From NCBI GenBank assembly GCA_022703585.1, contig JAKLDJ010000007.1, forward strand, positions 25,338 to 89,337: 64,000 nucleotides of DNA. Direction: 5' to 3'. This document shows positions 13,161 to 39,757 of this stretch, one piece after another. How positions within the stretch are numbered: position 1 is the stretch's first letter; each line of letters opens with the position of its first letter. The notes beneath the pieces are model-generated. The model did no database searches. It saw nothing but the letters and a program-made list of their open reading frames with translations, and was not told where the DNA came from. Origin of the DNA: Candidatus Omnitrophota bacterium. GTDB taxonomy: Bacteria > Omnitrophota > Gorgyraeia > Zapsychrales > JAKLDJ01. Both the position numbers and the translations under genes were made by a program.

Positions 13161-13212
13161 CAATAATAGGTTGACTAAAATAGGATTTGTGTTTAAATAA
13201 GAGAAATAAATA

Positions 13213-13313
13213 ACGGGGAGGCCGTAAGACGGCCTGAGAGTTCCGCTAAGTTTTAAGCGGATGACCCGACGAACCTGATCTGGATAATGCCAGCGGAGGG
13301 AAAGGAAGGTGAG
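13213..13313 (+). promoter_or_regulatory. TPP (THI-box) riboswitch aptamer
   Basis: ACGGGGAGGCCGUAAGACGGCCUGAGAG...ACCCGACGAACCUGAUCUGGAUAAUGCCAGCGGAGGGAA matches the conserved TPP aptamer core (CUGAGA, ACCCG, GAACCUGAUCUGGAUAAUGCCAGCGNAGGGA). Confidence 0.9.
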
Positions 13314-13320
13314 TATGTTT

Positions 13321-13352: not shown

Positions 13353-13397
13353 TTTTCCGCGGGGCCTTTGTTTCGGATCGCCAAAAAAAGGAGAAGG

Positions 13398-20962: not shown

Positions 20963-21063
20963 CTTTCTTAGAACCCAAAGAAGCATAAGGTAGTCAATGT
21001 TACCTTTTTCCCGACGAAAATGAATTTTATATCTCTGTTATTGTAAAGAAAAAGGTTAATAAA

Positions 21064-21984: not shown

Positions 21985-21985
21985 T

Positions 21986-22621: not shown

Positions 22622-22625
22622 AGCA

Positions 22626-24083
22626 ATGCTGATATTTTTTATTTTGGGAATTCCGATTCTGCTGGCAGCTGGAGCCTTTTTCTCAAAAAGGCCCAGGGTA
22701 TTCGGAATTATTAATGTCTTTGGCTACTTAAGCATTTTATTGGCTTCAATCGTGCTTTTAAAAGATATTGCCTTTGCCGGCCACACACTTTTCTTCTTTA
22801 GTTTTCTTTATATCGATACTCTAAGCGCGTATTTTATTTTTGTTATCAGTGTGGTTAGCTTTGCCACAGCGCTTTATTCCGTCGGTTATATAGGAAAGGA
22901 TATGCAATCGGGGGCGATATCGGAAAATAAAGCAAAAATGTATTATTTGCTTTTTAATCTGTTTTGCTTTTCGATGTTTTTTGTCCCGGCGGTCAATAAT
23001 TTGGGCATGCTTTGGGTGGCTATTGAAATGACAACGCTGATCTCCGCGTTTTTGGTGGGATTTTATAACACCAAGCAATCGGTGGAAGCAGCCTGGAAAT
23101 ATATTATTATCTGCTCGGTGGGAATTATCTTCGCGCTTTTAGGCACAATCCTTTTTTCTTACGCGTTTTCGCTTGCCGGGGGCGCCAAAAGCCTTAATTG
23201 GACAGATATGGTGGCTGCGGCCGGGGGAATGGATAAAAATATCCTTAAAGTCGCCTTTATCTTTATTCTCGTCGGTTACGGGACCAAGGCGGGTTTGGCT
23301 CCCATGCACACCTGGCTGCCGGACGCGCACAGCCAGGCGGTTACCCCCATTAGCGCGCTTCTTTCCGGGGTTTTATTAAAGACCGCGATTTACGCTATTC
23401 TTAGATTCGGCATCATTGTGATTGAGGGGGTGGGATTTGGGTATTTCAGCCACCTGATGATTTTGCTGGGGTTGATCTCGCTAGGCGTATCCTGCAGCTT
23501 TATTCTGGTTCAAAAAGATTTAAAACGGCTTTTGGCCTACAGCAGCATTGAACATGTCGGAATAATTGCTATCGGCTTAGGGTTAGGCACGCCGCTCGCT
23601 TGGGGTGGCGCTTTATTGCATGTTTTTAATCATGCCGTGACTAAGTCGCTCATGTTTTTTGGCGCCGGGGATATTGTCAGCGCCTACAAAAGGCACAACA
23701 TGAAGATGATTCGCGGGGTTATAAGGGTTTTGCCCTTTGCCGGAGTAATGACGCTGGCAGGCATGTTTGCCTTAACCGGTTTTCCGCCGTTTTCCATTTT
23801 TGTCAGCGAACTCATAATCATTATCGCCGCGTTTACCAAGGGGTCTTACGTCGTGGCTGTCCTGTTTTTGCTATTTATCGCGATTATCTTCGGCGCCTTC
23901 GCCTATCAATTCGGTAAAATGCTTTTTGGCAATCTTCCCAAAGGAATGGCGAAGGCGCCGGAACCTTTAAGCGGAAAGCTGGCGTTCTTATTTTTGTTCG
24001 TTCAAATGCTGGCGGTGGGCGGTGTGGTTCTATTCATGAAGAAGGACTTATTATGGATTGTGCAGGGATTATTAACGAGATAA
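22626..24083 (+). CDS. ehrD: Ehr module subunit D: NuoM/N/HyfF-like antiporter-type membrane subunit
   Basis: 485 aa, NADH dehydrogenase M/N family (…GLAPMHTWLPDAH… motif). Confidence 0.8.
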   Translation: MLIFFILGIPILLAAGAFFSKRPRVFGIINVFGYLSILLASIVLLKDIAFAGHTLFFFSFLYIDTLSAYFIFVISVVSFATALYSVGYIGKDMQSGAISENKAKMYYLLFNLFCFSMFFVPAVNNLGMLWVAIEMTTLISAFLVGFYNTKQSVEAAWKYIIICSVGIIFALLGTILFSYAFSLAGGAKSLNWTDMVAAAGGMDKNILKVAFIFILVGYGTKAGLAPMHTWLPDAHSQAVTPISALLSGVLLKTAIYAILRFGIIVIEGVGFGYFSHLMILLGLISLGVSCSFILVQKDLKRLLAYSSIEHVGIIAIGLGLGTPLAWGGALLHVFNHAVTKSLMFFGAGDIVSAYKRHNMKMIRGVIRVLPFAGVMTLAGMFALTGFPPFSIFVSELIIIIAAFTKGSYVVAVLFLLFIAIIFGAFAYQFGKMLFGNLPKGMAKAPEPLSGKLAFLFLFVQMLAVGGVVLFMKKDLLWIVQGLLTR

Positions 24084-25642
24084 AAGCAAAATTTCCCGGT
24101 TTTTCTGTGATTAGCGCGGTGCAGAATTACCCGGATGAGATTTGCCTGTATGTCCGGCCGGAGATCTTTAAAGACACCTGTCTGGTCTTGCATAAAATTC
24201 TTTTATCTCCGGTAAAAATGCTTTTTGCCCTGGATGAACGCAAGATGGCGAATAAATTTACAGTCCACTGCGTTTTTCTCAGTGCGAAAAGCGGTCAATG
24301 GGTCACGGTTGCTATTGATGTCCCGGCCGAAAATCCCTGTTTTGATTCGTTGGCAAAAAGCATTTATTCGGCCAGCCTTTTTGAACGTGAAATTTATGAA
24401 ATGTTTGGCATCAAGCCCGAGGGGAATCCTGATTTGAGGCGGCTTCGTTTGCATGATGAGGTTTGGCCGCAGGGAAGTTTCCCTTTGCGCAAAGATTTTG
24501 CGGGCGCGCCAAAAAATATTTCAGCAGAGAATTTACCCGCCTACAAATTCTCTAAAGTCGAAGGCAACGGCATCTTTGAAGTCCCGGTTGGCCCGGTGCA
24601 CGCCGGGATCATCGGGCCGGGGCATTTTCGTTTTAGCGTTGCCGGAGAACCGATCATTAATCTGGAGATCAGGCTCGGCTTTACCCACCGGGGAGTTGAA
24701 AAACTTTTTGAAGGAAAATTTTTAACGCAAGCGCTGCGCCTCGCGGAAAGCGTTGACGGAGAATCAGCATTCGCTCATAGTCTCGCTTTTACCCAGGCCG
24801 CGGAAAAGATTGCCGGGATTTCCATTTCTCTTCAGGCGGCTTACGCCCGGGCAATATTTTTGGAGCTTGAGCGGATGTATAATCACGCCAATGATATCGG
24901 CGGCATTGCCGTTGATGTGGGTTTTAGTTTTCCGGCAGCCATTGCCTCGATCATTAAGGAATCTATTTTGCAATTGAATGAAAAGTTAACCGGCAGCCGG
25001 TATTTAAAGGGGATTAATACTGTTGGGGGAGTTTTAAGGAGCCCGGAGGAACATGAAATAAGAATGGTTTCTGGCTTTTTAAAAGAGATCAAAAAAGATT
25101 TTAACCAGCTTGCCAAAATCCTTACGACAAGCGTTTCGTTTATGGATAGGGTGGACACAACCGGCGTATTAAAGAAGAAAACCGCCGAGGACATCGGGGT
25201 TGCGGGTTTGGCAGGCCGCGCTTGCGGGATCGCTTTGGATCTAAGGAAAAATTTTGCGGGTGTTTACCACGAGGCCAAATTTAAAATGGCTGTGGAGCAA
25301 AGCGGCGATGTCCTGGCCCGGTTAAGGGTAAGGATCGCCGAATTTGAGGAATCAATGCGGTTGGTTGAGTTCTTTTTAAGTAAAATCACCCCCGGCGAAA
25401 CAGCCTTTCCTCAGCCGCAACGAAAAGAAGGAGAAGCCTTAGGTTTCGCGGAAAGCTGGAGGGGGCCGGTTTTGTATTGGCTTAAAACCGATTGTAACGG
25501 CGCAATCGAGCGCTGCAAGATCGTCGACGCCTCTTTTTGCAACTGGCAGGGCTTGTCCTACGCGGTTTTAGGAAATATTATTCCCGATTTTCCACTATGC
25601 AATAAGAGTTTTGACCTTTCGTACCCGGGTAACGACTTATAG
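24053..25642 (+). CDS. ehrL: Ehr 'large subunit': NuoC-NuoD (HycE-like) fusion lacking both Ni-Fe cysteine motifs
   Basis: The N-terminal half is NuoC-like (SLFEREIYEMFGIKPEGNPDLRRL). The C-terminal half is NuoD/HycE-like (VPVGPVHAGIIGPGHFRFSVAGEPIINLEIRLGFTHRGVEKLFEGKF). Where MbhL has ERxCGxCxxxH this protein has AESVDGESAFAHS, and the C-terminus has DASFCN instead of DPCxxCxxR. Confidence 0.8.
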   Translation: MDCAGIINEIKAKFPGFSVISAVQNYPDEICLYVRPEIFKDTCLVLHKILLSPVKMLFALDERKMANKFTVHCVFLSAKSGQWVTVAIDVPAENPCFDSLAKSIYSASLFEREIYEMFGIKPEGNPDLRRLRLHDEVWPQGSFPLRKDFAGAPKNISAENLPAYKFSKVEGNGIFEVPVGPVHAGIIGPGHFRFSVAGEPIINLEIRLGFTHRGVEKLFEGKFLTQALRLAESVDGESAFAHSLAFTQAAEKIAGISISLQAAYARAIFLELERMYNHANDIGGIAVDVGFSFPAAIASIIKESILQLNEKLTGSRYLKGINTVGGVLRSPEEHEIRMVSGFLKEIKKDFNQLAKILTTSVSFMDRVDTTGVLKKKTAEDIGVAGLAGRACGIALDLRKNFAGVYHEAKFKMAVEQSGDVLARLRVRIAEFEESMRLVEFFLSKITPGETAFPQPQRKEGEALGFAESWRGPVLYWLKTDCNGAIERCKIVDASFCNWQGLSYAVLGNIIPDFPLCNKSFDLSYPGNDL

Positions 25643-25666
25643 ATAATTAATTATGCTGGTATTTAA

Positions 25667-25747
25667 CACAGATTCTCACAGATCAAACACAGATGGCCAC
25701 AGATAAAACTATCTGTGAATATCTGTTTAGATCTGTGTCTATCTGTG
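25667..25747. repeat. Dyad-symmetric heptamer array: four CACAGAT followed by four ATCTGTG
   Basis: Reads cacagattctcacagatcaaacacagatggccacagataaaactatctgtgaatatctgtttagatctgtgtctatctgtg. It sits in a 157-nt gap between ehrL and ehrS. Confidence 0.8.
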
Positions 25748-25799
25748 CTCAATAAGAGCAAAAGTAAATCGACATTATAAACTTATAGGATTTTTTGCC

Positions 25800-26315
25800 A
25801 TGTATCGAATATTAAAATATAGAATGCTCAAAGGAATTGTCACCCGGCATATTGCGCCCGAAGCTTTGGGCGAAATCGAATCAACCGGCAAAGAGCTTAA
25901 GACTTTGATCCGCAAGAAATTCGGTAAATCCTTGCATATCCGCGAGGTCGATACTGGCTCGTGCAATGCCTGCGAATCCGAAATTATTTCGGCCAATAAT
26001 CCTATTTATGACCTGCAGCGATTTGGCATCAATTTTGTGGCGTCCCCGCGGCACGCCGATGCCCTTCTTGTGACGGGACCGGTTTCCAAGAATATGCTTT
26101 TGGCTTTAAAGAAAACCTACGACGCCATGCCGGAACCGAAATTCGTCATTACCGTCGGCGATTGCGCCTTGGATTGCGGTGTTTTTAAAGGCTCTTACTA
26201 CACCGCGGGCGCTGTCGCCCAAATCCTCCCCGTCGCCCTTCACATCCCGGGGTGCCCGCCGAGTCCCTCAGCTATCATTAAATCGCTGCTTGCATTCTTG
26301 AGGCAGCATGATTAG
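25800..26315 (+). CDS. ehrS: Ehr small subunit: NuoB / hydrogenase small-subunit-like protein with retained Fe-S cysteines
   Basis: 171 aa with Cys in GSCNACESE, VGDCALDCG and IPGCPPSP, matching the NuoB/MbhJ cluster-ligand pattern. Confidence 0.8.
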   Translation: MYRILKYRMLKGIVTRHIAPEALGEIESTGKELKTLIRKKFGKSLHIREVDTGSCNACESEIISANNPIYDLQRFGINFVASPRHADALLVTGPVSKNMLLALKKTYDAMPEPKFVITVGDCALDCGVFKGSYYTAGAVAQILPVALHIPGCPPSPSAIIKSLLAFLRQHD

Positions 26316-28946: not shown

Positions 28947-29471
28947 ATGAAAAAAAGCACCGCTTTGGAAGTTGTCGAGCAAAAGATTTTCTTGATCCGG
29001 GGTCAGAAAGTCATGATCGACCTACATTTGGCCGAGCTTTACGATGTTCGGACAAAAGTCCTTGTCCAAGCCGTCAAGCGAAACAAAAGAAGGTTTCCTA
29101 AGGATTTTATGTTTCAACTGACCGATCAAGAATTTGAGAGTTTGAGGTCACAATTTGTGACCTCAAACCGCGGTGGAAGACGGTACCGGCCGTATGCCTT
29201 TACGGAACAGGGTGTCGCGATGCTTTCAAGCGTTCTCAACGGCGAGAGGGCTGTTCAAGTCAATATTGTCATTATGAGGGTTTTTGTCAAATTGAGAGGA
29301 ATTTTATTTGCTCATAAAGAACTTGAGCAAAAACTGAACGCGCTTGAGCAAAAAGTCGAAAGTCACGACGCCCATATCCAGGGGATCTTTGATGTTATCC
29401 GTAAATTGATGGCAGCACCTGTTGAGAAACCAAAACAGAGAATCGGGTTTCATCCGTCCCCTTCCGGCTAA
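28947..29471 (+). CDS. ORF6N-domain protein (KilA-N-like, phage antirepressor-associated DNA-binding domain)
   Basis: IRGQKVMIDLHLAELYDVRTKVLVQAVKRNKRRFPKDFMFQLT...SQFVTSNRGGRRYRPYAFTEQGVAMLSSVL matches the ORF6N domain consensus. Confidence 0.8.
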   Translation: MKKSTALEVVEQKIFLIRGQKVMIDLHLAELYDVRTKVLVQAVKRNKRRFPKDFMFQLTDQEFESLRSQFVTSNRGGRRYRPYAFTEQGVAMLSSVLNGERAVQVNIVIMRVFVKLRGILFAHKELEQKLNALEQKVESHDAHIQGIFDVIRKLMAAPVEKPKQRIGFHPSPSG

Positions 29472-29523: not shown

Positions 29524-29567
29524 GAGGGGCGCAAGCCCCGCTTTTTCAGGCGGGGCTTGCGCCCCTC
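29524..29567 (+). terminator. Strong hairpin after the ORF6N gene (terminator-like)
   Basis: gaggggcgcaagccccgc tttttcag gcggggcttgcgcccctc: 18-bp perfect stem followed by a T-rich stretch. Confidence 0.6.
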
Positions 29568-29711: not shown

Positions 29712-29739
29712 TTGACAAAATAAAAAATAACGCTACAAT
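29712..29739 (+). promoter_or_regulatory. Candidate sigma70 promoter for the mbh/mrp operon (TTGACA, 16-nt spacer, TACAAT)
   Basis: Reads tTTGACAaaataaaaaataacgcTACAATaag. Confidence 0.45.
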
Positions 29740-29820
29740 AAGTTTCTCAAATCAGAAATCGAACAAGCGAATGCCTTCGGAATACAGGCTGAAGGCATTT
29801 TTTAACATTAGGGGTAGCAC

Positions 29821-31266
29821 GTGTCCAACCAACAAATCCTGCTTTCGGTTATCTTCGTTCCAACCTTGGGCGCTTTCCTTTTACCTATCCTGGAGCGGGT
29901 GTCAGCCGGGTTACGCAACTGGTCGGCGCTTGTTTTTGTCCTGGTTTCGGTTGCCGGCTCTTCTTTGCTCGCACCTTTAGCCCTGAAGGGACAAGCTGTA
30001 AGTGTAAGCCACGCATTGCCTTTGGGATTTAACTTCGTCTTTACCGCGGACGGCCTGGCGGTATTTATGGCGCTGGTGTCATCATTCATCAGCGCGGTTA
30101 TCGTCCTTTATTCCTTCGGTTATATAAGCCACTATGAGAATCAAAACGAGTATTATCTCATGGTGGTTTTGTTTTTAGGCTCCATGATGGGGCTGGTTTT
30201 TTCGGGAAATCTCATCTTCCTTTATCTGTTTTGGGAAATCACGGCCATCACCAGCTGGCGGTTGATCGGATTCTTTAGAGAGAAAAATGACGTCTTTCGA
30301 GCCGACAAATCGTTTTTGGTCACGGCCTTCGGTGCTTTGTCCATGCTTTTGGGCTTTTTAATGATCTACCAGCAGTCCGGCTCATTTGACCTGTCGGTTA
30401 TTAAGGAAACGTTTAGGTTTAATCCGCTATCCAATACCGCGATATTTTTAATCCTTATCGGAATATTCTCTAAATCAGCCACCTTGCCGTTCCATACCTG
30501 GCTTCCGGATGCAGGGGTAGCTCCGTCGCCGGTAACCGCGCTACTGCACGCGGCGGTTCTGGTAAAGATTGGCGTCTATGTCTTTGCCCGGCTTTTTGTG
30601 GTCAATCTTTCGCTGGGCGAATTCTGGCATGTAGCGGTACCGGTTATTGCGGGCGCCAGCGCGCTTGTTTCAGCCGGGGCAGCACTTATTGACACCAATT
30701 TAAAAAGAATTATTGCCTATTCGACCATCAGTCAAATAGGTTTTATTTTTCTTGGCCTCGCCATCGGAAACGAAATGGCGGTTGCCGGCGGGCTTTTGTA
30801 TATCTTGATGCACGGCCTGGCCAAGGGCGGGTTGTTCTTGTGCGCCGGTATCATTGAGCAGAACACCAAGACAAAAGACATTACTAAAATGGGCGGCCTG
30901 ATCGCGACCATGCCGGTCACGGCGATCGCATTTTTATTCTGCGCGTTTTCGGTCATGGGCATACCGCCGTTTGGCGGATTCTTTAGCAAATTTATGGTTA
31001 TTGTGGGAACGTTACAGGCCGGTCATGTATGGATCGCGCTTATTTTTATTCTGGGCGCTTTTTTGACTATCCTTTATCTTTTTAGAGCCTTTAACATGAT
31101 CTTCTTAGGCGAACTTAAAACTCCGGGCGTAAGGGAAGGCTCAGCCGTTATGGTTTTTAGCGTGGCGCTGTTGGCATTTCTTTCGCTGGCAGGCGGCATT
31201 TTTATCCGGTATCCGAATGAATTCGTAGGGCTGGTTTTGCAGCCCATATTTGGGATGGTGCGGTAA
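29821..31266 (+). CDS. MrpD/NuoN-like antiporter-type membrane subunit (MbhH-like), GTG start
   Basis: 481 aa, NADH dehydrogenase L/M/N family (…LPFHTWLPDA…). Confidence 0.8.
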   Translation: MSNQQILLSVIFVPTLGAFLLPILERVSAGLRNWSALVFVLVSVAGSSLLAPLALKGQAVSVSHALPLGFNFVFTADGLAVFMALVSSFISAVIVLYSFGYISHYENQNEYYLMVVLFLGSMMGLVFSGNLIFLYLFWEITAITSWRLIGFFREKNDVFRADKSFLVTAFGALSMLLGFLMIYQQSGSFDLSVIKETFRFNPLSNTAIFLILIGIFSKSATLPFHTWLPDAGVAPSPVTALLHAAVLVKIGVYVFARLFVVNLSLGEFWHVAVPVIAGASALVSAGAALIDTNLKRIIAYSTISQIGFIFLGLAIGNEMAVAGGLLYILMHGLAKGGLFLCAGIIEQNTKTKDITKMGGLIATMPVTAIAFLFCAFSVMGIPPFGGFFSKFMVIVGTLQAGHVWIALIFILGAFLTILYLFRAFNMIFLGELKTPGVREGSAVMVFSVALLAFLSLAGGIFIRYPNEFVGLVLQPIFGMVR

Positions 31267-33092
31267 TGGATAATATTTTACTTCTTCCTATATTAGTCCC
31301 GGCGGTTTCGGGGATCCTGATGCTGCTGATAAGGAAGACGCGCGGCATTAAAGAAATCGCTACGTTCTTTGTGGCGACGGCTAATCTCCTGATTGCGGTT
31401 ATGCTGTTTAGGAAGGAGCTTGACTTTACGCTGCCGTGGGCGGGTTTTGGCATGGAATTTTCGCTCCGGCTTTATCACTTTAGCTCGTTTATTCTTTTGG
31501 CCACGGGGTTTTTCGGATTTCTAATCGCGCTTTACTGCACGACCTTTATGCGCGAAAAAGGCGCCCTCAATCAATTCTATAGTTACTTATTGATTTCGAT
31601 TGCTTTGGTTAACGGCGCGGTGTTATCCGACAATCTGGTTTTGATGCTCTTTTTCTGGGAAGGGCTGTTGGTGACGCTCTTTGGAATGATCTTTATTGGC
31701 GGCAAGGATTCGTTTAGAACCGCGACCAAGGCTTTTATCATTGTCGGGATATCGGATCTGTGCATGATGGTGGGGATCGGCATTACCGCGCATTTGGCCG
31801 GAACTTTAACAATTTCAAAAATCAATCTTCCCGTGGACGCGCTGGGAAGTGTGGCGTTTGTGCTGCTCATGATCGGCGCGATTTCAAAAGCCGGGGCCAT
31901 GCCGTTTCACAGCTGGATTCCCGACGCAGCCAAGGACGCGCCGCTTCCTTTTATGGCGTTTTTGCCGGCGGCTTTGGAAAAATTATTGGGAATTTATTTT
32001 CTGGCCAGGATCTCACTGGATATGTTTAAACTGGACGCCTCGTCATGGTTAAGCCCGCTTTTGATGATCATCGGTTGTATCACGATCCTCTTGGCGGTTA
32101 TGATGGCCCTTATTCAAAAAGATTATAAAAAGCTTCTTTCCTATCACGCCATCAGCCAAGTCGGCTACATGATTTTAGGGATCGGGACCTGCGTTCCCGT
32201 CGGAATCGTCGGCGGGCTGTTTCATATGATTAACCACGCGCTTTATAAGTGCTGCCTGTTTTTATCCGGCGGTTCGGTGGAAAAGCAAGCCGGGACAACG
32301 GATCTTGAAAAATTAGGCGGCCTGGGAATTAAAATGCCGGTAACCTTCGGCTGTTTTATCGTTGCCGCGGCATCCATCTCCGGCGTGCCGCCTTTTAACG
32401 GATTTTTTTCCAAAGAGCTGATCTATGACGGGGCGCTGGAACGGGGTTGGATTTTTTACGCGATGGCGGTGGCGGGGTCATTTTTTACCGCGGCGTCATT
32501 CTTGAAATTAGGCCACGCGGCATTTTTGGGAAAAATAAACGATGCCAACAAAAGTGTTAAAGAGGCGTCCTGGCCGATGCTGATTCCGATGGTGATGATC
32601 GCGTCTTTGTGCGTTCTTTTTGGTTTATATAATGCCTTGCCTTTGAATAATCTGATTCAGCCGATTTTGGGCGAGCATAGGCTTGAAGGCCACAACTTTT
32701 CCGGAATGCCCACAAACGCATTTTTGGTTATTATGACCGTTCTGGTCTTGGCCGCCGCGCTTTTAAATCATTATCTCGGATTTAAAAAGCAGGGAAGCGG
32801 TATTAAAGCGGTTGACCATATTCACTACGCCCCGGTTTTGCATCCGATTTATGACCGGGCGGAAAAAAGATTTTTTGACCCCTTTGATATTGGAATGAGA
32901 GTGGCAGGCTGGGCGGCCAAGATGATCTGGTATGTTGACCGCGTTATCGATTGGCTGTATGACGGTTTCTCGGTGGGGATGACCTACGCGCTTTCTATCG
33001 GTATCCGACGGGCGCATACGGGAAATTATTCGGTGTATATTATCTGGTCGCTGGTAGGTCTCATGGTTATTATCTTTCTTGCGGTGAGGTAA
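31266..33092 (+). CDS. MrpA/MrpD-like antiporter-type membrane subunit (608 aa)
   Basis: Proton-pumping Mrp/Nuo L-M-N family (…MPFHSWIPDAA…). Start codon overlaps the upstream stop. Confidence 0.8.
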   Translation: MDNILLLPILVPAVSGILMLLIRKTRGIKEIATFFVATANLLIAVMLFRKELDFTLPWAGFGMEFSLRLYHFSSFILLATGFFGFLIALYCTTFMREKGALNQFYSYLLISIALVNGAVLSDNLVLMLFFWEGLLVTLFGMIFIGGKDSFRTATKAFIIVGISDLCMMVGIGITAHLAGTLTISKINLPVDALGSVAFVLLMIGAISKAGAMPFHSWIPDAAKDAPLPFMAFLPAALEKLLGIYFLARISLDMFKLDASSWLSPLLMIIGCITILLAVMMALIQKDYKKLLSYHAISQVGYMILGIGTCVPVGIVGGLFHMINHALYKCCLFLSGGSVEKQAGTTDLEKLGGLGIKMPVTFGCFIVAAASISGVPPFNGFFSKELIYDGALERGWIFYAMAVAGSFFTAASFLKLGHAAFLGKINDANKSVKEASWPMLIPMVMIASLCVLFGLYNALPLNNLIQPILGEHRLEGHNFSGMPTNAFLVIMTVLVLAAALLNHYLGFKKQGSGIKAVDHIHYAPVLHPIYDRAEKRFFDPFDIGMRVAGWAAKMIWYVDRVIDWLYDGFSVGMTYALSIGIRRAHTGNYSVYIIWSLVGLMVIIFLAVR

Positions 33093-33097
33093 AAGAA

Positions 33098-34528
33098 GTG
33101 CTTCCTTTATTTATACTGGTTCCGTTATTTTGCTTGATACTGCTGAACGTGCCGCCCAAGGCAATCGTGAAGCGGCCGGCCTTTTGGCTGGTGGCGGCAT
33201 TGCCTTTGGTGCAGGTATTTTTGACGGCCTTTCATCCTGTGGCGGTGTGGGATGAGATCCGCAATCCCTTTAATTCGTATTTTATTTTTAATCTTTCGGT
33301 TGACGCGTTAAGCACCGTGCTCTTATTATCCATCGGAATCGTCGTTTTTATCGCGGCGCTGGTGGGCCGTTATACCCTGTCGGGCGAAACCCAGAGGTTT
33401 AATTTCTTTAATCTTCTGCTGGTTGCGTTTCTGGGAATGAATGCAACCGTGATGGTTCAGGATATTTTTGCGCTGTATGTTTTTATCGAAGTGACCGCGG
33501 TGGCATCATTTATTTTGATCGCGATGCAAAAAGACAAACCGGCGCTCGAGGGTGCCTTTAAATACATTATCCTTTCGGTGGTAGCGACGGTATTGATGCT
33601 GTCATCGATCGCGTTGATTGTTATGGCGGCCGGAGATACCTCGTTTGCCGCGGTTTCGTCTGCTATCCGGGCGTATCCGGCCAGTGTTTTGGTCAAGGTC
33701 GCGGTTAATCTATTTTTGTGCGGTTTGTTTATCAAGGCGGGAATTGTTCCCTTTCACGGCTGGTTGCCGGACGCGTATTCGGCGGCACCGTCGTCGGTCT
33801 CGGTCTTGTTGGCCGGCATTATTACCAAGGTCTCGGGCGTATACGTACTGATACGAATGGTGGTGACTGTTTTCGGGATTGAGCAGTCGCCGCAGGCGGT
33901 GTTGATGTTTGTCGGTGCTTTATCGATTGTGGCCGGCGCGTTGGCGGCTATAGGACAAAGCGATTTTAAAAGAATGCTCGCCTATTCCAGCGTCAGCCAG
34001 GTGGGATATATTATTTTAGGTTTAGGTTGCGGCACGCCGTTGGCGCTGGCGGGCGCGGTATTTCATTTATTTAATCACGCGCTTTTTAAGACTCTTTTGT
34101 TCGTTAATGCCGCCGCGGTTCAGGAAAAACTGGGAACTGTGGATATGAATAAGATGTCGGGGTTATCGGTCAAGATGCCGGTGACCGGCGCCACAAGCGT
34201 GGTCGCGCTTTTATCGACGGCAGGAATTCCGCCCTTGTCCGGATTTTGGAGCAAGCTGATTATTGCTATGGCCCTTTGGCAGTCGGGTCAATATGCGTAT
34301 ACTATTATTGCAGTCCTCGCGAGCGTTTTAACTTTGGCTTATTTTCTTTCGATGCAGCGAAGGGTTTTCTTTGGGAAATTGCAGGAAGGGCTGGAAAATT
34401 TAACCGAGGCCAGGCTGGGGCTGATTCTGCCGGCGATTATCTTAGCGGTGGTCACGGTCGGGGTGGGGTTAGCTTTTCCGATCGTCTTGGATAAATTAAT
34501 TTTACCTGTACAAAACATTCTTAAATAA
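33098..34528 (+). CDS. Third MrpD/NuoM-like antiporter-type membrane subunit (476 aa)
   Basis: Same family (…VPFHGWLPDAY…). Confidence 0.8.
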   Translation: MLPLFILVPLFCLILLNVPPKAIVKRPAFWLVAALPLVQVFLTAFHPVAVWDEIRNPFNSYFIFNLSVDALSTVLLLSIGIVVFIAALVGRYTLSGETQRFNFFNLLLVAFLGMNATVMVQDIFALYVFIEVTAVASFILIAMQKDKPALEGAFKYIILSVVATVLMLSSIALIVMAAGDTSFAAVSSAIRAYPASVLVKVAVNLFLCGLFIKAGIVPFHGWLPDAYSAAPSSVSVLLAGIITKVSGVYVLIRMVVTVFGIEQSPQAVLMFVGALSIVAGALAAIGQSDFKRMLAYSSVSQVGYIILGLGCGTPLALAGAVFHLFNHALFKTLLFVNAAAVQEKLGTVDMNKMSGLSVKMPVTGATSVVALLSTAGIPPLSGFWSKLIIAMALWQSGQYAYTIIAVLASVLTLAYFLSMQRRVFFGKLQEGLENLTEARLGLILPAIILAVVTVGVGLAFPIVLDKLILPVQNILK

Positions 34529-34529
34529 T

Positions 34530-35015
34530 ATGGCGATAAACTTTATTCTAGTGGTTGCATTACTTTTGGCTGCTCTCTGGACGGTAATGACCGCCCGGCT
34601 TATTCGTTCGGCCTTTGGGCTTGCCTTGACCAGTGCGGTTTTGGCGATCCTTCTTTTTAGATTGGATTCTCCCATGGCAGCGGTGTTTGAGCTTTCGGTA
34701 TGCGCGGGGTTAATCCCGGTTATTTTTGTTACCACCATCAGTTTGACCCATCGGTTAAGCCAGGACGCATTTCAAATCAGGCAAAAAGAACGATGGGGAA
34801 AATACTGGTATCTTTTGGTGATCGTTGTCCTGGTGGGGGTTTTATTAAGCCGGCGGGCTTTGTTACCGGATGTGCCGTTGCCGGTAGTAACGCATCCAAC
34901 GGATGTCCGTATTGTTATGTGGAATATGCATCATGTGGATCTGTTGGGCCAGGTGGCGGTTATTTTGGCCGGTGTTTTTGGCGTGGTTATTCTATTTAAG
35001 GAAGTTAAAAAATGA
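34530..35015 (+). CDS. MrpB/MnhB-like small membrane subunit
   Basis: 161 aa, 4-5 TM, MnhB-domain-like (…TVMTARLIRSAFGLALTSAVLAILLF…). Confidence 0.65.
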   Translation: MAINFILVVALLLAALWTVMTARLIRSAFGLALTSAVLAILLFRLDSPMAAVFELSVCAGLIPVIFVTTISLTHRLSQDAFQIRQKERWGKYWYLLVIVVLVGVLLSRRALLPDVPLPVVTHPTDVRIVMWNMHHVDLLGQVAVILAGVFGVVILFKEVKK

Positions 35016-35332
35016 GCCCTGATTTGACCCAAGTATTTTGGCCCTTTAGTGCTGCGGCTATTCTTTTGTTTGTGATGGGGACCTATTACGTGCTGGTCAC
35101 ATTTAATCTTATTCGCGCTTTAATCGGCGTCGAGATTTTAATTAAAGGCGCAACTCTTTTGATTATTCTTGCCGGTTACGTGACCGGCAATACCGGCTTG
35201 ACCCAGGCTTTGGTTATCACCCTGATTGTGATCGAGGTCGTGATCATGGTGGTAGCGGGCGGGGTGATCTTATGCGTGTACCGGAATAATAAGTCGATCG
35301 ATGTTCGCGAATTACGGAGTTTGAAAGGTTAA
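35012..35332 (+). CDS. NuoK/MrpC-like (MbhG-like) small membrane subunit
   Basis: 106 aa, 3 TM, NuoK/MnhC pattern (LIGVEILIKGATLLIILAGY). Confidence 0.7.
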   Translation: MSPDLTQVFWPFSAAAILLFVMGTYYVLVTFNLIRALIGVEILIKGATLLIILAGYVTGNTGLTQALVITLIVIEVVIMVVAGGVILCVYRNNKSIDVRELRSLKG

Positions 35333-35335
35333 AAG

Positions 35336-35671
35336 ATGCCCGAGAAAATATTTCTAACGCCGCCGGTCGCTTTTATCGTGGTGTTATTGGTGATCGCCTC
35401 GTTGTCGTATCTTTTTTCGAAGCTTTCTTTTCGCGACCCGAAACACGGCAAAGACGAAAGAAAACCGTATGCCTGCGGGGAAGATTTTGACGGCAGCATG
35501 ATCCAGCCGGATTACAGCCAGTTTTTTCCTTTTGCCTTTTTCTTTACGATTCTCCACGTGGTGGCGTTGATGATCACCACCGTTCCGGCCGGGGTCTCCG
35601 GGACATTGGCCATGGCGGTGATTTATATCATCAGTGCCGTGGTCGGTTTATTCATTCTATTGGGAAAGTAG
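35336..35671 (+). CDS. NuoA/MbhI-like small membrane subunit
   Basis: 111 aa; the KPYACGED motif resembles the NuoA PYECG motif between TM helices. Confidence 0.55.
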   Translation: MPEKIFLTPPVAFIVVLLVIASLSYLFSKLSFRDPKHGKDERKPYACGEDFDGSMIQPDYSQFFPFAFFFTILHVVALMITTVPAGVSGTLAMAVIYIISAVVGLFILLGK

Positions 35672-35677
35672 GGGACG

Positions 35678-36172
35678 ATGAGTATTCTAAAAAAAATAAT
35701 CAGATGGGCCAGGATCAAGTCACCCTGGATCATTCATTTTAATACGGGGGCGTGCAATGCCTGCGATATCGAGATCGTGGCTGCGCTTACTCCCCGCTAT
35801 GACCTGGAACGTTTTGGAGTTATTATAAAAGGGACTCCGCGGCACGCGGATGTGCTGGTCTGTTCCGGGCCGGTGACGCTCCAGACGCAGGACAGGCTGC
35901 TAAGGATCTATGAACAGATGCCGGAGCCGAAGTTTGTGGTGGCGGTTGGAACCTGCGCCTGCAGCGGCGGGGTTTTCCAGGGTTGTTACAGCGTTCGGGC
36001 GGGCATTGATTCTATTTTGCCGGTTTCGGTTTTTATCCCGGGTTGCCCGGCAAGCCCCAAGGCCATTATTGACGGGGTAGTTAAATTGCTGGATAGCCTG
36101 GAAGATAAACCCAAGAAAGAAATGGCCCCGGTGCTTCCTAAAAAAGAATTAGCCCAGGGCAATGCTACATAA
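35678..36172 (+). CDS. mbhJ: [NiFe]-hydrogenase small subunit / NuoB-like (MbhJ-like) protein
   Basis: Cysteines in GACNACDIE, VGTCACSGG and IPGCPASP, i.e. the NuoB/MbhJ Fe-S ligand pattern. Confidence 0.85.
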   Translation: MSILKKIIRWARIKSPWIIHFNTGACNACDIEIVAALTPRYDLERFGVIIKGTPRHADVLVCSGPVTLQTQDRLLRIYEQMPEPKFVVAVGTCACSGGVFQGCYSVRAGIDSILPVSVFIPGCPASPKAIIDGVVKLLDSLEDKPKKEMAPVLPKKELAQGNAT

Positions 36173-36178
36173 TAAAAG

Positions 36179-36667
36179 GTGTTCGTGATGACCGAAGAAC
36201 AGATTAAACAACAAATAGAGCATCAATTCGGCTACCTAAAAGATGCCGTGGTGATCAAACGGGCAAGGCGCCTGTGGCTGGATGTGCCGATGGATAAATT
36301 TGAAGAAGTTTTTGTTTATTTGACTGAAGCGATGCCCCTGGTGAGGCTGTTAACTATTACCGGCATGGATGAGGGGACGACGTTTGGAATCATCTATCAT
36401 CTGGCGGCAGAGAGCGGAATTATTTTGAATTTAAGAATTCACATCCCGCGCGAGAATCCCGCTATCCAATCAATGACGTCAAAATTCTCGTGTGCGGATA
36501 TTTACGAACGGGAGATTAAGGATTTACTGGGGATCCAGGTGCTGGGTTTGCCCGAGGGCCGTCGGTATCCCTTGACGGACAATTGGCCCGACGGAGAATA
36601 TCCGTTACGCAAAGATTGGAAGGGTTTAAGCACCGAAAAGAAGGGGGGAACTTTAAATGCCCAATAA
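36179..36667 (+). CDS. mbhK: NuoC-like (MbhK-like) subunit
   Basis: 162 aa with a 30-kDa-subunit fold (…SCADIYEREIKDLLGIQVLGLPEGRRYPL…). The true start may be the internal MTEEQ. Confidence 0.8.
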   Translation: MFVMTEEQIKQQIEHQFGYLKDAVVIKRARRLWLDVPMDKFEEVFVYLTEAMPLVRLLTITGMDEGTTFGIIYHLAAESGIILNLRIHIPRENPAIQSMTSKFSCADIYEREIKDLLGIQVLGLPEGRRYPLTDNWPDGEYPLRKDWKGLSTEKKGGTLNAQ

Positions 36668-37910
36668 AATACGTAAATTACCGGATTCCGGCGACGTTCA
36701 GGTCCCCATAGGGCCGCAGCATCCTTCGCTTAAGGAGCCCGAGAGTTTTCTTTTAACTCTGCGGGGGGAAAAGATCACGGCCGCGAGTGTGAGATTAGGT
36801 TATAATCACCGGGGAATAGAGAAGGCCTGCGAGGAACGGACCTATATTCAGGATTTGTACTTAATCGAAAGGGTCTGCGGTATTTGTTCGCATGCCCATT
36901 TGACCTGTTTTGTTCAGGCGGTGGAAGAGATTGCGGCGATCGAAGTCCCCAAACGCGCCCAGTATATCCGTGTTGTGGTTGGAGAATTGGAGCGCATTCA
37001 TAGCCATCTTTTGTGGCTGGGGGTAGCGGGCCACGAAATCGGTTTTGATACGTTATTGATGTACAGCTGGCGCGACCGGGAAATTGTTATGGATATCCTG
37101 GCGGATTTAGCCGGTAACCGCGTCCATTACGGAGTGACCACCTACGGCGGGGTGAAACGTGATATTACTCCCGAGCAGATAAAAGATGTCTTAAAGGCGG
37201 TCGATACTCTCGAGGAGAGGACAAAATACTATATTGAACTCGCCAAAAATGAGGAAACGATCATCAAAAGGCTGTCGGGCGTGGGGATGCTTAAACACGA
37301 TGATGCCTTAAGATTAGGCGCGGTCGGGCCAACAGCGCGTGCCGGCGGTGTTGACCGCGATACGCGGCGTGACGATCCTTATGCGGCGTACCCGGAAATG
37401 AAATTCAAAGTGGTAATCGATGACCATGCGGATGTTTACGGCCGTACCTTGGTGCGCATGGGAGAATTGATGGAGGCCTACAGTATTATCCGTCAGGCCC
37501 TGACCAATATGCCTGAAGGGGTGTTTAGGGTGAGGGCGCCGAGGCGCATTCCTGCCGGGGAAGCCACCGGCCGTTACGAGGCGCCGCGGGGTGAAGACGT
37601 GCATTATGTTAAATCAAACGGCAGCGATAAGCCGGAAAGGGTTAAGATCCGGGCTCCGACCTTGGCGAATATCCAGGCTGTCACCCATATGCTCGAGGAT
37701 AGATACTTAGCCGACATGCCCATTGTGGTTGCGGCTATTGATCCCTGTTTTTCCTGCACCGACCGATTGATTGGTATCAAGGATCTGCGCACCGACAAAA
37801 AGCAAACACTGGATTGGGATAATTTACGTCTTTCGGGTATTAAATGGTATCAAAAACGAGGCGTTGATTTCTCGCGGTTGAATGAAAAGCTAAAGAGGTC
37901 ATTTAAATAA
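36657..37910 (+). CDS. mbhL: Group-4 [NiFe] hydrogenase large subunit (MbhL/HycE/NuoD family) with both Ni-Fe cysteine motifs and a C-terminal extension
   Basis: L1 motif ERVCGICSHAH and L2 motif DPCFSCTDR are both present, followed by a ~45-aa C-terminal tail (a substrate for an endopeptidase). Confidence 0.9.
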   Translation: MPNKIRKLPDSGDVQVPIGPQHPSLKEPESFLLTLRGEKITAASVRLGYNHRGIEKACEERTYIQDLYLIERVCGICSHAHLTCFVQAVEEIAAIEVPKRAQYIRVVVGELERIHSHLLWLGVAGHEIGFDTLLMYSWRDREIVMDILADLAGNRVHYGVTTYGGVKRDITPEQIKDVLKAVDTLEERTKYYIELAKNEETIIKRLSGVGMLKHDDALRLGAVGPTARAGGVDRDTRRDDPYAAYPEMKFKVVIDDHADVYGRTLVRMGELMEAYSIIRQALTNMPEGVFRVRAPRRIPAGEATGRYEAPRGEDVHYVKSNGSDKPERVKIRAPTLANIQAVTHMLEDRYLADMPIVVAAIDPCFSCTDRLIGIKDLRTDKKQTLDWDNLRLSGIKWYQKRGVDFSRLNEKLKRSFK

Positions 37911-37912
37911 AA

Positions 37913-38860
37913 ATGGATATCCTCCAGCAGTTGTTTAATATTTTTATATTCCCGGGGCTTTTGTTTTTATTTGTCTTTGCCCTGGCAGCGGAATTTATCG
38001 ACCGGCGGCTTTATGCGCGATTTCAAAACCGCATGGGCCCGCCCTGGTTTCAGCCGCTGGCGGATTTTATTAAACTATTAGCCAAAGAGGACATTATCCC
38101 TCAGGAAGCGGATGTGGCGACGTTTAAGCTGATGCCGGTTCTGGCATTGACCGCGACCGTCACCTCGTTTTTTTATATACCGCTTTGGAATGAACAGGCG
38201 CTGTTTTCTTTTAACGGCGATATCATTGTCGTGTTGTATCTTCTGACTATCCCGACCTTGACGTACTTCTTGGGCGGCTGGTATTCGCGTTCTGTATATT
38301 CGATGATCGGGGCGGTGCGTTCTTTAACCCAGCTTTTTGCCTATGAGGTGCCTTTATTTATGAGCATCTTGGCGTCGGCACTTTTGGCCGGGACCTGGTC
38401 TTTAAGCGGAATGGCTGTTTTTTACAACGATCACCCCTGGTACTGGCTTTTTAATCTCATTGGTTTTGCCACGGCCTTGGTGGCGCTTTTGGGAAAACTG
38501 GAAAAGGTGCCGTTTGATATTCCCGAAGCCGAAACCGAGATCGTGGCCGGAAGTTTTACCGAATACAGCGGCCGAATGCTGGCGCTTTTTAGATTATCGA
38601 TTAATGTCGAGATGGTGGTGGGGGCGTCTCTTTTGGCGGCGGTATTCTTGCCGTTTAGTTTAGACGGCAATCTGGTTTTGGGATTCGCCATTTATCTTTT
38701 TAAGGTTATCTCGATTGTTGCTTTTATTGCTCTGGCCCGCTCGATTTTTGCCAGGTTACGGCTTGACCAGATGATCAATCTTTGCTGGAGATTTTTTGCG
38801 CCCATAGGATTTTTACAGGTGTTGATTAACTTGGCCATTAAAGGATTCTTTTTGAAATGA
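37913..38860 (+). CDS. mbhM: NuoH-like (MbhM-like) membrane subunit
   Basis: 315 aa with the NuoH signature (FIDRRLYARFQNRMGPPWFQPLADFIKLLAKEDI). Confidence 0.9.
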   Translation: MDILQQLFNIFIFPGLLFLFVFALAAEFIDRRLYARFQNRMGPPWFQPLADFIKLLAKEDIIPQEADVATFKLMPVLALTATVTSFFYIPLWNEQALFSFNGDIIVVLYLLTIPTLTYFLGGWYSRSVYSMIGAVRSLTQLFAYEVPLFMSILASALLAGTWSLSGMAVFYNDHPWYWLFNLIGFATALVALLGKLEKVPFDIPEAETEIVAGSFTEYSGRMLALFRLSINVEMVVGASLLAAVFLPFSLDGNLVLGFAIYLFKVISIVAFIALARSIFARLRLDQMINLCWRFFAPIGFLQVLINLAIKGFFLK

Positions 38861-39288
38861 AAACTCCCGGTAAAATCTTGATGCAAGTCCTGGAATCGGT
38901 GGGAAAAAAGCCCGCGACCTTGAACTACCCCCAGGAAAAACCGCCCATGGCCAAAGGATTCCGGGGAAAGTTGAAATTTAAACCCGAAGCCTGCGTGGGA
39001 TGTATGCTGTGCACCAAAGATTGCCCGTCGGGCGCGATTCAAATCAAAAAGCTCGGCGAAAAACAATTTCAATGCGAAATCGACTTAAGCAAATGTATCT
39101 ACTGCGCCCAGTGCGTGGAATCCTGCGCTCGCAAGGCCCTGGAATATACGGATGAATTTGAACTCGCCAACATTGACCGCGGCAAATTAAAGATCGTCTA
39201 TAGCGCCCAACCTCCAGCTAATACCCAGCCTCCAACCAATGTCCAGCCCTCAACCAATGCCCAGCCTCAAGACCCAACTCAAAAGTAG
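38857..39288 (+). CDS. mbhN: NuoI-like 2x[4Fe-4S] ferredoxin subunit (MbhN-like) with a low-complexity Q/P/T/N tail
   Basis: Two CxxCxxCxxxCP motifs (CVGCMLCTKDCP, CIYCAQCVESCA). The C-terminal tail is PPANTQPPTNVQPSTNAQPQDPTQK, from a short nucleotide tandem repeat. Confidence 0.85.
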   Translation: MKTPGKILMQVLESVGKKPATLNYPQEKPPMAKGFRGKLKFKPEACVGCMLCTKDCPSGAIQIKKLGEKQFQCEIDLSKCIYCAQCVESCARKALEYTDEFELANIDRGKLKIVYSAQPPANTQPPTNVQPSTNAQPQDPTQK

Positions 39289-39757
39289 GCTTGCAAAAGC
39301 AAAAAGAATCGTTATCTTAGGCGTCGGTTCCGAACTTCGCGGCGATGACGTCGCCGGCATGCTGGTTGTGAAAACTTTAAAAAAAAGCCTTAGCGGAAAC
39401 AAGAAAATAGTCCCGATTAAAATTATTTTCGGCGGTGTCTCCCCGGAGAATTTTACCGGTGCGATAAAGCGATTCAAGCCGTCGCACTTGGTCATTATTG
39501 ATTCCGCGGATTTAGGCCGCAAGGCCGGAACGGTTGATTTTCTTGACGTTCAGAATATCGGCGGGGTAACGTTTAATACCCATAAACTGCCCACTCGGTT
39601 TATGGTCGAATATCTTTTAGTCTCCGAAAAATTCTCGGTCACCATAATCGGCATTCAGCCCAAGACTATTTCGTTTATGGCCCCCGTATCCCAACAAGCC
39701 AAAAAAGCGGTAGGAAGCCTCGCGGGTACCTTGAAGTCGATTTTGACACATCAGTAG
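39257..39757 (+). CDS. hycI: Hydrogenase maturation endopeptidase (HycI/HyaD family)
   Basis: RIVILGVGSELRGDDVAGMLV...VIIDSADLG is the HycI/HybD fold. The start is ambiguous and overlaps the mbhN 3' end; the listed ORF starts at 39239. Confidence 0.75.
   Translation: MPSLKTQLKSRLAKAKRIVILGVGSELRGDDVAGMLVVKTLKKSLSGNKKIVPIKIIFGGVSPENFTGAIKRFKPSHLVIIDSADLGRKAGTVDFLDVQNIGGVTFNTHKLPTRFMVEYLLVSEKFSVTIIGIQPKTISFMAPVSQQAKKAVGSLAGTLKSILTHQ

Follow-up and report, generated by a model that had tools for sequence, protein, structure and literature searches.

The 11-subunit, Fpo-like [NiFe] hydrogenase Hfo, described from Bathyarchaeia by Loh et al. in 2021 (HydDB group 4g-6), lacks the MbhABCF proteins and was proposed to draw on the membrane potential in order to reduce ferredoxin with H2 (PMC7886697). 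HydDB group 4g itself is a loosely clustered, uncharacterised and putatively ferredoxin-coupled class (PMC5037454), and has been termed a polyphyletic catch-all (PMC13582414). Moparthi and Hagerhall had stated that hydrogenases without exception lack NuoA and NuoJ, and had proposed that complex I and the hydrogenases descend from an 11-subunit ancestor that carried Ni-Fe (PMC3144371). Within the Omnitrophota, Williams et al. list a 'Group 4g [NiFe] hydrogenase, Mrp-linked' for two genera (PMC8542988), and coupling to ferredoxin is inferred for these enzymes (PMC8542988, PMC5037454); in the literature, enzymes of Elusimicrobia and Saganbacteria bear comparable labels of the 'Mbh-Mrp type'. In the literature searched Hfo is named only in the original paper, and neither a description of a bacterial family in complex-I-like terms nor a cryo-electron microscopy study of an energy-converting hydrogenase from 2022 onwards was found. 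The subject of this work is a hydrogenase operon at positions 29821-39757 of a 64,000-nucleotide stretch of DNA (the window) from contig JAKLDJ010000007.1 of a Candidatus Omnitrophota bacterium (assembly GCA_022703585.1). The operon is predicted, with a probability of about three in four, to encode an 11-subunit, ion-translocating, ferredoxin-coupled group-4 [NiFe] hydrogenase together with its own HycI protease.

Twelve open reading frames (ORFs) on the + strand tile the interval, overlapping or separated by no more than 7 nt, in the order three antiporter-like genes, J, K, A, B, C, D, H, I and hycI (Table 1). All 12 proteins were assigned to families by Pfam and NCBIfam scans, and each of the 11 structural proteins pairs with one core subunit of complex I: NuoA, B, C, D, H, I, J or K, or one of the three of the L/M/N type. 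An original prediction, made from the DNA letters alone, described an operon for a group-4 [NiFe] hydrogenase that is complete and ends with a gene for a HycI-type protease; the genes and motifs it named were all found where it placed them, and the family scans and motifs agree with that description.

The peripheral arm, composed of NuoD-like, NuoB-like, NuoC and NuoI-like subunits, is by its sequence motifs a true hydrogenase module. A scan of one genome per GTDB species recovered a relative in 194 species, of which the best 80 were examined (loci L001-L080); in all 80 of these large-subunit orthologues L1 and L2, and with them all four Ni-Fe cysteines, are kept. The best match of the large subunit among solved structures in the Protein Data Bank (PDB) is MbhL of the group 4d hydrogenase Mbh from P. 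furiosus (PDB 6CFW; 336 bits), followed by E. coli HycE (257 bits) and the complex I subunit Nqo4 (217 bits). When 1.84 billion representatives were scanned, both NiFe motifs were present in nearly every full-length sequence from the closest clusters at 50% identity. These hydrogenase matches and motifs rule out the view of the protein as a near neighbour of NuoD, and indicate that it belongs within the hydrogenases and not beside NuoD. The operon might nevertheless be read as encoding no hydrogenase at all, but an enzyme of the complex I or Fpo-like kind, with 11 subunits and with quinone or another compound as its electron acceptor, as the large subunit scores 343 bits against the NCBIfam NuoD model (cut-off 360) and databases often label its homologues 'NADH-quinone oxidoreductase subunit D/L'. 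This reading is scarcely credible when the cysteines, whose loss is accepted as the hallmark of complex I (PMC3144371), are invariant in 80 orthologues, when the large-subunit tail and the HycI protease are both conserved (see below), and when the small subunit contains a CxxC of the hydrogenase type where complex I NuoB has CC.

This small subunit, the most conserved of the complex (73-83% identity across loci), provides ligands for one [4Fe-4S] cluster through the CxxC (aa 26-29), GTCACSGG and PGCP. The NuoC-like gene is separate from the large-subunit gene, with no fusion between them, and the NuoI-like protein is the likely entry point of ferredoxin; no NADH, F420, formate or CO input module is encoded in the operon. 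The low-complexity tail pointed out in the original prediction is indeed present in the NuoI-like subunit (the QP-rich sequence QPPANTQPPTNVQPSTNAQP, overlapping the start of hycI) but is not conserved in orthologues and is thus lineage-specific. As an unconserved segment lying in the hycI overlap, it was rejected as a functional feature.

Beyond L2 the large subunit continues for 47 residues, in line with the cleavable tail of about 45 residues anticipated in the original prediction, and this extension aligns into the tail of HycE, which is cleaved in E. coli; a phmmer alignment of the two proteins reaches the end of the HycE chain, tail included. The tail is 38-50 residues long in 79 of the 80 orthologues and 71 residues in the remaining one, and its core, W-E-x-L-R-x-x-[GS]-I-x-W-[YH]-x-x-x-G-[IV]-D-F-x-x-L-N-K-K, is conserved across L001-L080. 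The precursor of MbhL presumably has a tail of similar length. The E. coli protease HycI cuts HycE after the Arg of DPCxxCxxR. In the window the match of the HycI protein to its hidden Markov model (HMM) starts only at residue 25, and the first 50 nt of the longest hycI ORF (39239-39288) coincide with the 3' end of the nuoI-like gene; given the late start of the match, the true start codon may lie further downstream. The protease gene is the last of the operon in about 50 syntenic loci, and in Methanoregulaceae it is fused to the NuoI-like gene (285 aa). The combination of a conserved, HycE-like tail with a co-operonic or fused HycI makes proteolytic removal of the tail after Arg370 a well-founded inference, by analogy with the E. 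coli system.

Two features of this maturation system are odd. The conservation of the tail across phyla exceeds what a disposable peptide would need, which raises the question of whether it serves in chaperone or protease docking. In addition, a protease that acts once is fused to a permanent subunit in Methanoregulaceae (L081, 12150-13007). An AlphaFold2 model of the large subunit is uninformative on the folding of the tail, which has a predicted local distance difference test (pLDDT) score of 43-55, and the active-site loops are also poorly modelled. No hyp genes occur among the scanned ORFs of the window, the rest of the genome lying outside the scan; hypA/B/F are directly 5' of the operon in the sister locus L083.

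The membrane arm consists of one homologue each of NuoH, NuoA, NuoJ and NuoK plus three L/M/N-like proteins, and corresponds to the seven membrane subunits of complex I, one of them bearing the NuoL lateral helix. The three antiporter-like subunits announced by the original prediction are all present, each matching Proton_antipo_M with a Pfam E value between 1e-57 and 1e-74. All three have an invariant TM5 Glu, TM7 Lys, TM8 Lys, TM11 His/Lys and TM12 Lys (TM, transmembrane helix), charged positions whose pumping roles are established for complex I. In subunit 1, which has no C-terminal extension, these are Glu139, Lys218, Lys249, His331/Lys335 and Lys390 (52 orthologues); in subunit 3 they are Glu131, Lys213, Lys244, His323/His327/Lys331 and Lys386 (62 orthologues). 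The TM12 pair of subunit 2 is Lys383-Glu384, also invariant among orthologues, where NuoL has Lys-Asp.

Subunit 2 is the NuoL-like member of the set, and is annotated as NuoL by NCBI. It aligns end to end with T. thermophilus Nqo12 (residues 5-603 against 7-601) and likewise with M. smegmatis NuoL, and covers positions 3-606 of the 615 in the NCBIfam NuoL model. An AlphaFold2 model (pLDDT 80) contains TM15, a long lateral helix (residues 525-533 and 539-583) and a last TM helix at 588-607, and in a Foldseek search this model matched MrpA and NuoL best, over the full length, with TM-scores of 0.74-0.76. Subunits 1 and 2 form a single polypeptide of about 1,000 residues in Margulisiibacteriota homologues, and a fused double antiporter-like protein also occurs in Methanoregulaceae (1,095 residues). 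These fusions argue that the two subunits must be neighbours in the complex.

The original prediction had designated one of the small membrane subunits MrpB-like, but the 161-residue protein concerned is the equivalent of NuoJ, that is, of MbhD plus part of MbhE: its orthologues match Pfam NuoJ in 17 of 17 cases, MbhD in 14 of 17 and MnhB in none of the 17. Its N-terminal half resembles MbhD/MbsD (DUF4040); a profile search of the PDB with this family gave MbsD (1.6e-10) and MbhD (3.9e-8) over that half, and E. coli NuoJ (0.02) over positions 10-108. The TM3 glutamate (Glu54, in VFELS) is invariant among orthologues. The NuoK-like subunit matches MbsG (2.5e-9), NdhE (6e-8) and NuoK (1e-5) in the PDB, and retains both membrane glutamates, Glu41 and Glu75. 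The subunit with the PYACG motif (aa 44-48) is a three-TM homologue of NuoA/ND3. Pfam NuoA is matched by 16 of 18 orthologues, the loop residues Y45-x-C47-G48-E49 are invariant and align with the 'YECG' loop of ND3, and a profile search of the PDB retrieved ND3 over all three TM helices (11-106 against 4-105, E 0.0045) and did not retrieve MbhI; a weak NCBIfam match to MbhI spans TM1 and the loop only.

None of the 12 operon proteins matches MrpE (MNHE), MrpF, MrpG or MnhB in Pfam or NCBIfam, and the tight packing of the genes excludes hidden ORFs. All window ORFs of 60-230 residues were screened for hydropathy, and 11 had at least two TM segments; six of these small membrane ORFs are otherwise unassigned, and none of the six has a Pfam match to Mrp E, F or G at E <= 1. 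The absence of MrpE/F/G reported in the original prediction holds for the operon and for the small membrane ORFs of the window. Its 'Mbh/Mrp-type' label, by contrast, has to be given up, as the MbhABCF module (MrpEFG/B) that defines Mbh is missing. The same module could in principle be encoded elsewhere in the genome and join the complex, which would then be a classical, Na+-translocating hydrogenase of the Mbh type. Such an arrangement would fit the choice of MbhL as the closest solved structure to the large subunit, the resemblance of the NuoJ-like N-terminal half to MbhD/MbsD, and the designation of Omnitrophota group 4g enzymes as 'Mrp-linked' in papers on metagenome-assembled genomes (MAGs). 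However, MrpE/F/G/B genes are lacking in the window, in more than 50 syntenic loci and in the sister loci L081, L083 and L084, Loh et al. report the same absence in Hfo (PMC7886697), and the 'Mrp' of the MAG papers may simply denote the antiporter-like subunits of the operon itself.

The coupling ion can be considered through the neighbours of related operons. An F-type ATP synthase operon is located within 6 kb downstream of the hydrogenase genes in about 15 related loci (L002, L005, L007, L008, L013, L016, L029, L036, L044, L050, L058 and others), an arrangement that the window itself does not share. The adjacent c-subunits read ..GLG..IEA(L/I)T.. and have neither the Gln nor the Ser/Thr of the Na+-binding signature, a motif whose reading is well established. 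These c-subunits, which belong to related loci only, weakly favour H+ over Na+ as the more likely ion and tell against a Na+-translocating Mbh; together with the missing genes they make that alternative very unlikely indeed. A membrane pyrophosphatase is encoded near the operon in 22 loci, and ExbB/ExbD is also a conserved neighbour in some.

The operon fits best among the 11-subunit, complex-I-like hydrogenases of group 4g, as a rearranged variant from bacteria. Hfo and the window system share the set NuoA, B, C, D, H, I, J, K, L, M and N, both keep L1 and L2, and both are without the MbhABCF Na+ module and an NADH or F420 input module. A Hfo-type locus recovered from Bathyarchaeota (L082) has the order A-B-CD-H-I-J-K-L-M-N, as in fpo/nuo-type operons, in contrast to the order in the window. 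Where BLASTP aligns the proteins of the two loci their identity is 30-68% (B 68%, D 50%, I 42% and H 39%); BLASTP found no match between the two loci for the NuoA- and NuoJ-like subunits. The NuoA-like subunit of L082 shares the 'YACGE' loop of the window protein. Unlike Hfo, the window system is bacterial, has separate C and D genes and contains hycI within the operon. It also divides the features of NuoL between two proteins, the Proton_antipo_N-type N-terminus being in subunit 1 and the lateral helix in subunit 2, whereas Hfo L has both. In a rough neighbour-joining tree the large subunit of the window lies outside the Hfo cluster, and it is probably of another lineage; its nearest neighbours are L083 and the Methanoregula and Anaerolineales clusters. 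The 'noNiFe' tags in this tree reflect a strict regular expression and truncated sequences, not real losses of the motifs.

The comparison with P. furiosus Mbh shows both the common core and the divergent membrane arm. Homologues of MbhD, G, H, J, K, L, M and N are present in the window, and the ferredoxin dependence of Mbh would by analogy apply to the window enzyme. MbhA/B/C/F (MrpE/F/G/B) have no counterpart, the single antiporter-like subunit MbhH is replaced by three, and the equivalents of MbhD and MbhE are fused in the NuoJ-like protein. The lateral helix, carried by MbhI in Mbh, is on the 608-residue NuoL-like subunit in the window, where the small loop subunit is the NuoA/ND3 homologue. 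The original prediction regarded this membrane arm as unusual, which is correct relative to the solved structures of Mbh, Mbs and FHL (formate hydrogenlyase), but the arrangement is the norm across a large and widespread clade.

Members of that clade were recovered well beyond the Omnitrophota. In the best 80 of the 194 species the large subunits are 67-75% identical to that of the window, and the hosts are mainly Omnitrophota, with Sedimentisphaerales/Phycisphaerae, Saganbacteria, Elusimicrobiota/Endomicrobiales, Krumholzibacteriota and one Myxococcales MAG. The identical 12-gene order was found in more than 50 loci, each from a different GTDB species, and holds for every locus with enough flanking sequence; this recurrence shows that the arrangement is more than chance. 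A protein search returned at least 8,000 candidates, all with E <= 1e-20. Sister clusters have large subunits 53-58% identical to that of the window. Among these, L083 has the gene order of the window, with hypA/B/F upstream and one apparently truncated antiporter-like gene (334 aa). The 'Mbh-like' enzymes of Methanoregulaceae and Anaerolineales have large subunits 53-54% identical to the window protein and the same set of subunits, MrpEFG being absent. They share with the window the order A-B-C-D-H-I followed by HycI, and their NuoA-like proteins are of 104-109 residues, but J and K precede the antiporter-like genes. The Anaerolineales locus L084 reads J-K-two antiporter-like genes-A-B-C-D-H-I-HycI, and has two antiporter-like subunits only; the Methanoregulaceae locus L081 reads J(split)-K-fused double antiporter-like gene-antiporter-like gene-A-B-C-D-H-I::HycI, with J divided into proteins of 87 and 80 residues. 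The three sister loci indicate that the window family is part of a wider 'Mbh-like' clade without MrpEFG, in which the number and order of the antiporter-like genes vary.

With complex I and the 11-subunit Nuo, Fpo-like and NDH-1 enzymes the window system shares the core 11 subunits, a lateral helix of the NuoL type, the ND3-type loop motif, the NuoJ TM3 Glu and the two NuoK glutamates. It differs from them in that the large subunit keeps its Ni-Fe site and is predicted to be matured by a protease, and quinone chemistry is not expected. E. coli Hyf (FHL-2, group 4a) resembles the window system in its three antiporter-like subunits, its HycI-type maturation and a homologous large-subunit tail; its large subunit is of the fused NuoCD type and it has HyfA and formate dehydrogenase partners, neither of which is found in the window system, and it contains no recognisable NuoA or NuoJ (PMC3144371).

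The similarity to Hyf bears on the possibility that a dedicated dehydrogenase encoded elsewhere, such as a formate dehydrogenase, a carbon monoxide dehydrogenase or a NuoEFG-like module, converts the complex into a formate or CO hydrogenlyase or an NADH-linked hydrogenase. Three antiporter-like subunits are indeed a property of Hyf/FHL-2 (PMC3144371), and related hydrogenases of candidate phyla with an attached oxidoreductase module have been described (PMC6349859). No HycB/HyfA-like protein or formate dehydrogenase partner is encoded in the operon of the window or its flanks, and neither the window nor the syntenic loci have a dehydrogenase gene of the types named in or beside the operon; the conserved neighbours are instead ATP synthase, pyrophosphatase and ExbBD. 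As NuoC and NuoD are also separate, unlike HycE and HyfG, and the NuoI-like subunit is of the plain two-cluster type, a dedicated dehydrogenase partner is very unlikely.

For the ferredoxin-coupled hydrogenase favoured here, the following cycle can be proposed. The large subunit would be made as a precursor, into which HypA-F, encoded outside the window, would insert Ni-Fe(CN)2CO; HycI would then trim the 47-residue tail after Arg370. Reduced ferredoxin would dock on the NuoI-like subunit and pass its electrons through three [4Fe-4S] clusters to the Ni-Fe site, where protons would be converted to H2. In the manner of complex I, this redox step would drive H+ both through the NuoH/A/J/K channel and through the three antiporter-like proteins, and the translocated H+ would feed the ATP synthase. 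The reaction is expected to be reversible, such that H2 and the membrane potential would yield reduced ferredoxin, and the data are compatible with either H2 evolution or H2 uptake as the physiological direction in this organism.

The energetics bear on this choice. The span from ferredoxin to H+, which we calculated from standard potentials, is about 90 mV at 1 atm H2 and about 200 mV at 10 Pa H2, or about 17-39 kJ per 2 e-. As this span is too small to cover four H+ per 2 e- against an ordinary membrane potential, the enzyme would either translocate fewer ions per 2 e- than complex I or often work in reverse. In the latter case its role would be H2 uptake, with the membrane potential driving the endergonic reduction of ferredoxin by H2 and the three antiporter-like subunits raising the H+/e- ratio so that ferredoxin is reduced even at very low H2. 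The many proton paths would suit this direction better energetically, and it is exactly the role that Loh et al. propose for Hfo (PMC7886697). In one genus of the Omnitrophota a group 4g enzyme is accompanied by the Wood-Ljungdahl pathway (PMC8542988). Among archaea, the hydrogenotrophic Methanoregulaceae contain the closest sister clade, and the Eha, Ehb and Ech enzymes of methanogens are known to work in the uptake direction. Conversely, most Omnitrophota MAGs are read as fermenters in need of an electron sink (PMC8542988), and genes for the Wood-Ljungdahl pathway or CO2 fixation were not found in the window; the adjacency of ATP synthase genes in related loci is neutral as to direction. A dedicated role in uptake is thus the most serious of the alternatives, if on balance an unlikely one.

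Several considerations temper confidence in the ferredoxin-coupled, ion-translocating enzyme proposed here. The translocation of four H+ per 2 e- would be affordable up to a potential of about 100 mV at most. Enzymes of group 4g are biochemically uncharacterised (PMC7886697), and ferredoxin is deduced to be the electron partner solely from the lack of other modules in the operon; genes for Hyp proteins, ferredoxin and pyruvate:ferredoxin oxidoreductase were not found among the scanned ORFs of the window. The sequence is, moreover, compatible both with a complex-I-like arrangement and with the flipped arrangement of Mbh.

The setting of the operon makes it look like a self-contained transcription unit, bounded by the signals listed in Table 1 and by a second promoter-like site 3' of the hydrogenase genes. 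Its upstream neighbours (a lipase, a DUF2007 protein and an ORF6N/Rha-like gene) and its downstream neighbours (thioredoxin, DJ-1, PanD, Def and LipA) are unrelated genes, and the G+C content of the window (about 0.42-0.52) shows no break in composition at the operon. A 9-bp inverted repeat, AATGCCTTC...GAAGGCATT, is located at 29771-29800, in the untranslated leader that separates the promoter-like site from the GTG start, and is a possible candidate for a regulatory hairpin. The ORF6N/Rha-like gene (28947-29471, +), which encodes a phage-type regulator and is probably a remnant of a mobile element, lies directly 5' of the operon and is followed by the hairpin with the 20-bp stem.

Two further features of the window deserve mention. 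A second, complex-I-related cluster of six genes (19139-26315, +) is located 3.5 kb 5' of the hydrogenase operon, and encodes NuoL-like (607 aa), NuoH-like (306 aa), HyfE/NuoK-like (211 aa), antiporter-like (485 aa), fused NuoC-NuoD (529 aa) and NuoB-like (171 aa) proteins, without a NuoI. In the fused NuoC-NuoD both Ni-Fe cysteine motifs are gone, the corresponding positions being occupied by AESVDGESAFAHS and DFPLCNKSFDLS. By its predicted products the cluster matches the 'energy-converting hydrogenase-related' (Ehr) complexes, which are described in PMC6349859 and whose partner and function have not been established. Further upstream, a thiamine pyrophosphate riboswitch (Rfam RF00059, 64.1 bits) at 13204-13318 (+) directly precedes a gene for a thiazole synthase of the Thi4 family (13368-14210).

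Table 1. Features of the hydrogenase operon and its 5' signals, in window coordinates.
Feature	Position	Strand	Length (aa)	Properties
Terminator-like hairpin	29524-29567			20-bp stem; ends the upstream gene and precedes the promoter-like site
Promoter-like site TTGACA-16-TACAAT	29712-29739	+		11/12 consensus positions; ~80 nt 5' of the first gene; putative function, from the consensus
Antiporter-like subunit 1	29821-31266	+	481	GTG start; N-terminus of the NuoL/MrpA class (Proton_antipo_N + Proton_antipo_M)
Antiporter-like subunit 2, NuoL-like	31266-33092	+	608	TM15, lateral amphipathic helix, anchor TM16
Lateral helix of subunit 2	32814-33014	+		~aa 517-583; anchor TM16 at aa 588-607
Antiporter-like subunit 3	33098-34528	+	476	NuoN/NuoM/MrpD class
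NuoJ-like subunit	34530-35015	+	161	5 predicted TM; Pfam Oxidored_q3 33.4 bits, borderline
NuoK/MbhG/MrpC-like subunit	35012-35332	+	106	3 TM; Pfam Oxidored_q2 1.9e-16
NuoA/ND3-like subunit	35336-35671	+	111	3 TM; Pfam NuoA 22.5 bits, just below cut-off
Hydrogenase small subunit, NuoB-like	35678-36172	+	164	Pfam Oxidored_q6 5e-31; NCBIfam NuoB 162 bits, cut-off 116
NuoC/MbhK-like subunit	36179-36667	+	162	Pfam Complex1_30kDa 3.6e-22
[NiFe] large subunit	36657-37910	+	417	Pfam Complex1_49kDa 6e-70 and NiFeSe_Hases 2.5e-12
L1 motif ERVCGICSHAH	36867-36899	+		aa 71-81 of the large subunit
L2 motif DPCFSCTDR	37740-37766	+		aa 362-370 of the large subunit
C-terminal extension of the large subunit	37767-37907	+	47	follows L2
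NuoH/MbhM-like membrane anchor	37913-38860	+	315	Pfam NADHdh 1.5e-75
NuoI/MbhN-like subunit	38857-39288	+	143	two [4Fe-4S] motifs
QP-rich tail of the NuoI-like subunit	39208-39267	+		aa 118-137
HycI-type maturation endopeptidase	39239-39757	+	172	length of longest ORF; TIGR00142 120.4 bits, cut-off 119.1; Pfam HycI 7e-14

The origin of complex I from membrane-bound hydrogenases, and the way in which redox chemistry is coupled to proton pumping in the membrane arm, are long-standing questions. The solved relatives Mbh, Mbs and FHL each depart from complex I in the composition or orientation of this arm, and a hydrogenase that had the full set of seven membrane subunits, with a NuoL-type lateral helix and an ND3-type loop among their features, would stand closer to complex I as a functional intermediate. 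Tentatively, and with the odds somewhat against so complete a picture, the products of the operon may assemble into an L-shaped, 11-subunit enzyme that combines a working Ni-Fe site with a complete membrane arm of the complex I type, in which NuoH-A-J-K and three antiporter-like subunits, clamped by the NuoL lateral helix, have the orientation found in complex I and not the flipped one of Mbh and Mbs. Such an enzyme would pose an energetic puzzle, with three or four proton paths working on a redox span of only about 100-200 mV.

The idea of an 11-subunit, complex-I-like hydrogenase is already known from archaeal Hfo (PMC7886697), and published lists already place the Omnitrophota enzymes in group 4g; what is gained here is therefore the refinement of a type anticipated in print, within a family that is abundant in databases, and not a discovery. 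If the proposed structure is correct, the family would have arisen or persisted in bacteria independently of the archaeal enzyme, and the coupling stoichiometry of the complex I membrane arm could be measured with a low-energy redox reaction, that between ferredoxin and H2. Anoxic sediments, groundwater and peat harbour the family in abundance, its hosts being Omnitrophota, Planctomycetota, Elusimicrobiota and others, and for this reason whether its members make or consume H2 matters for models of hydrogen cycling by uncultured bacteria.

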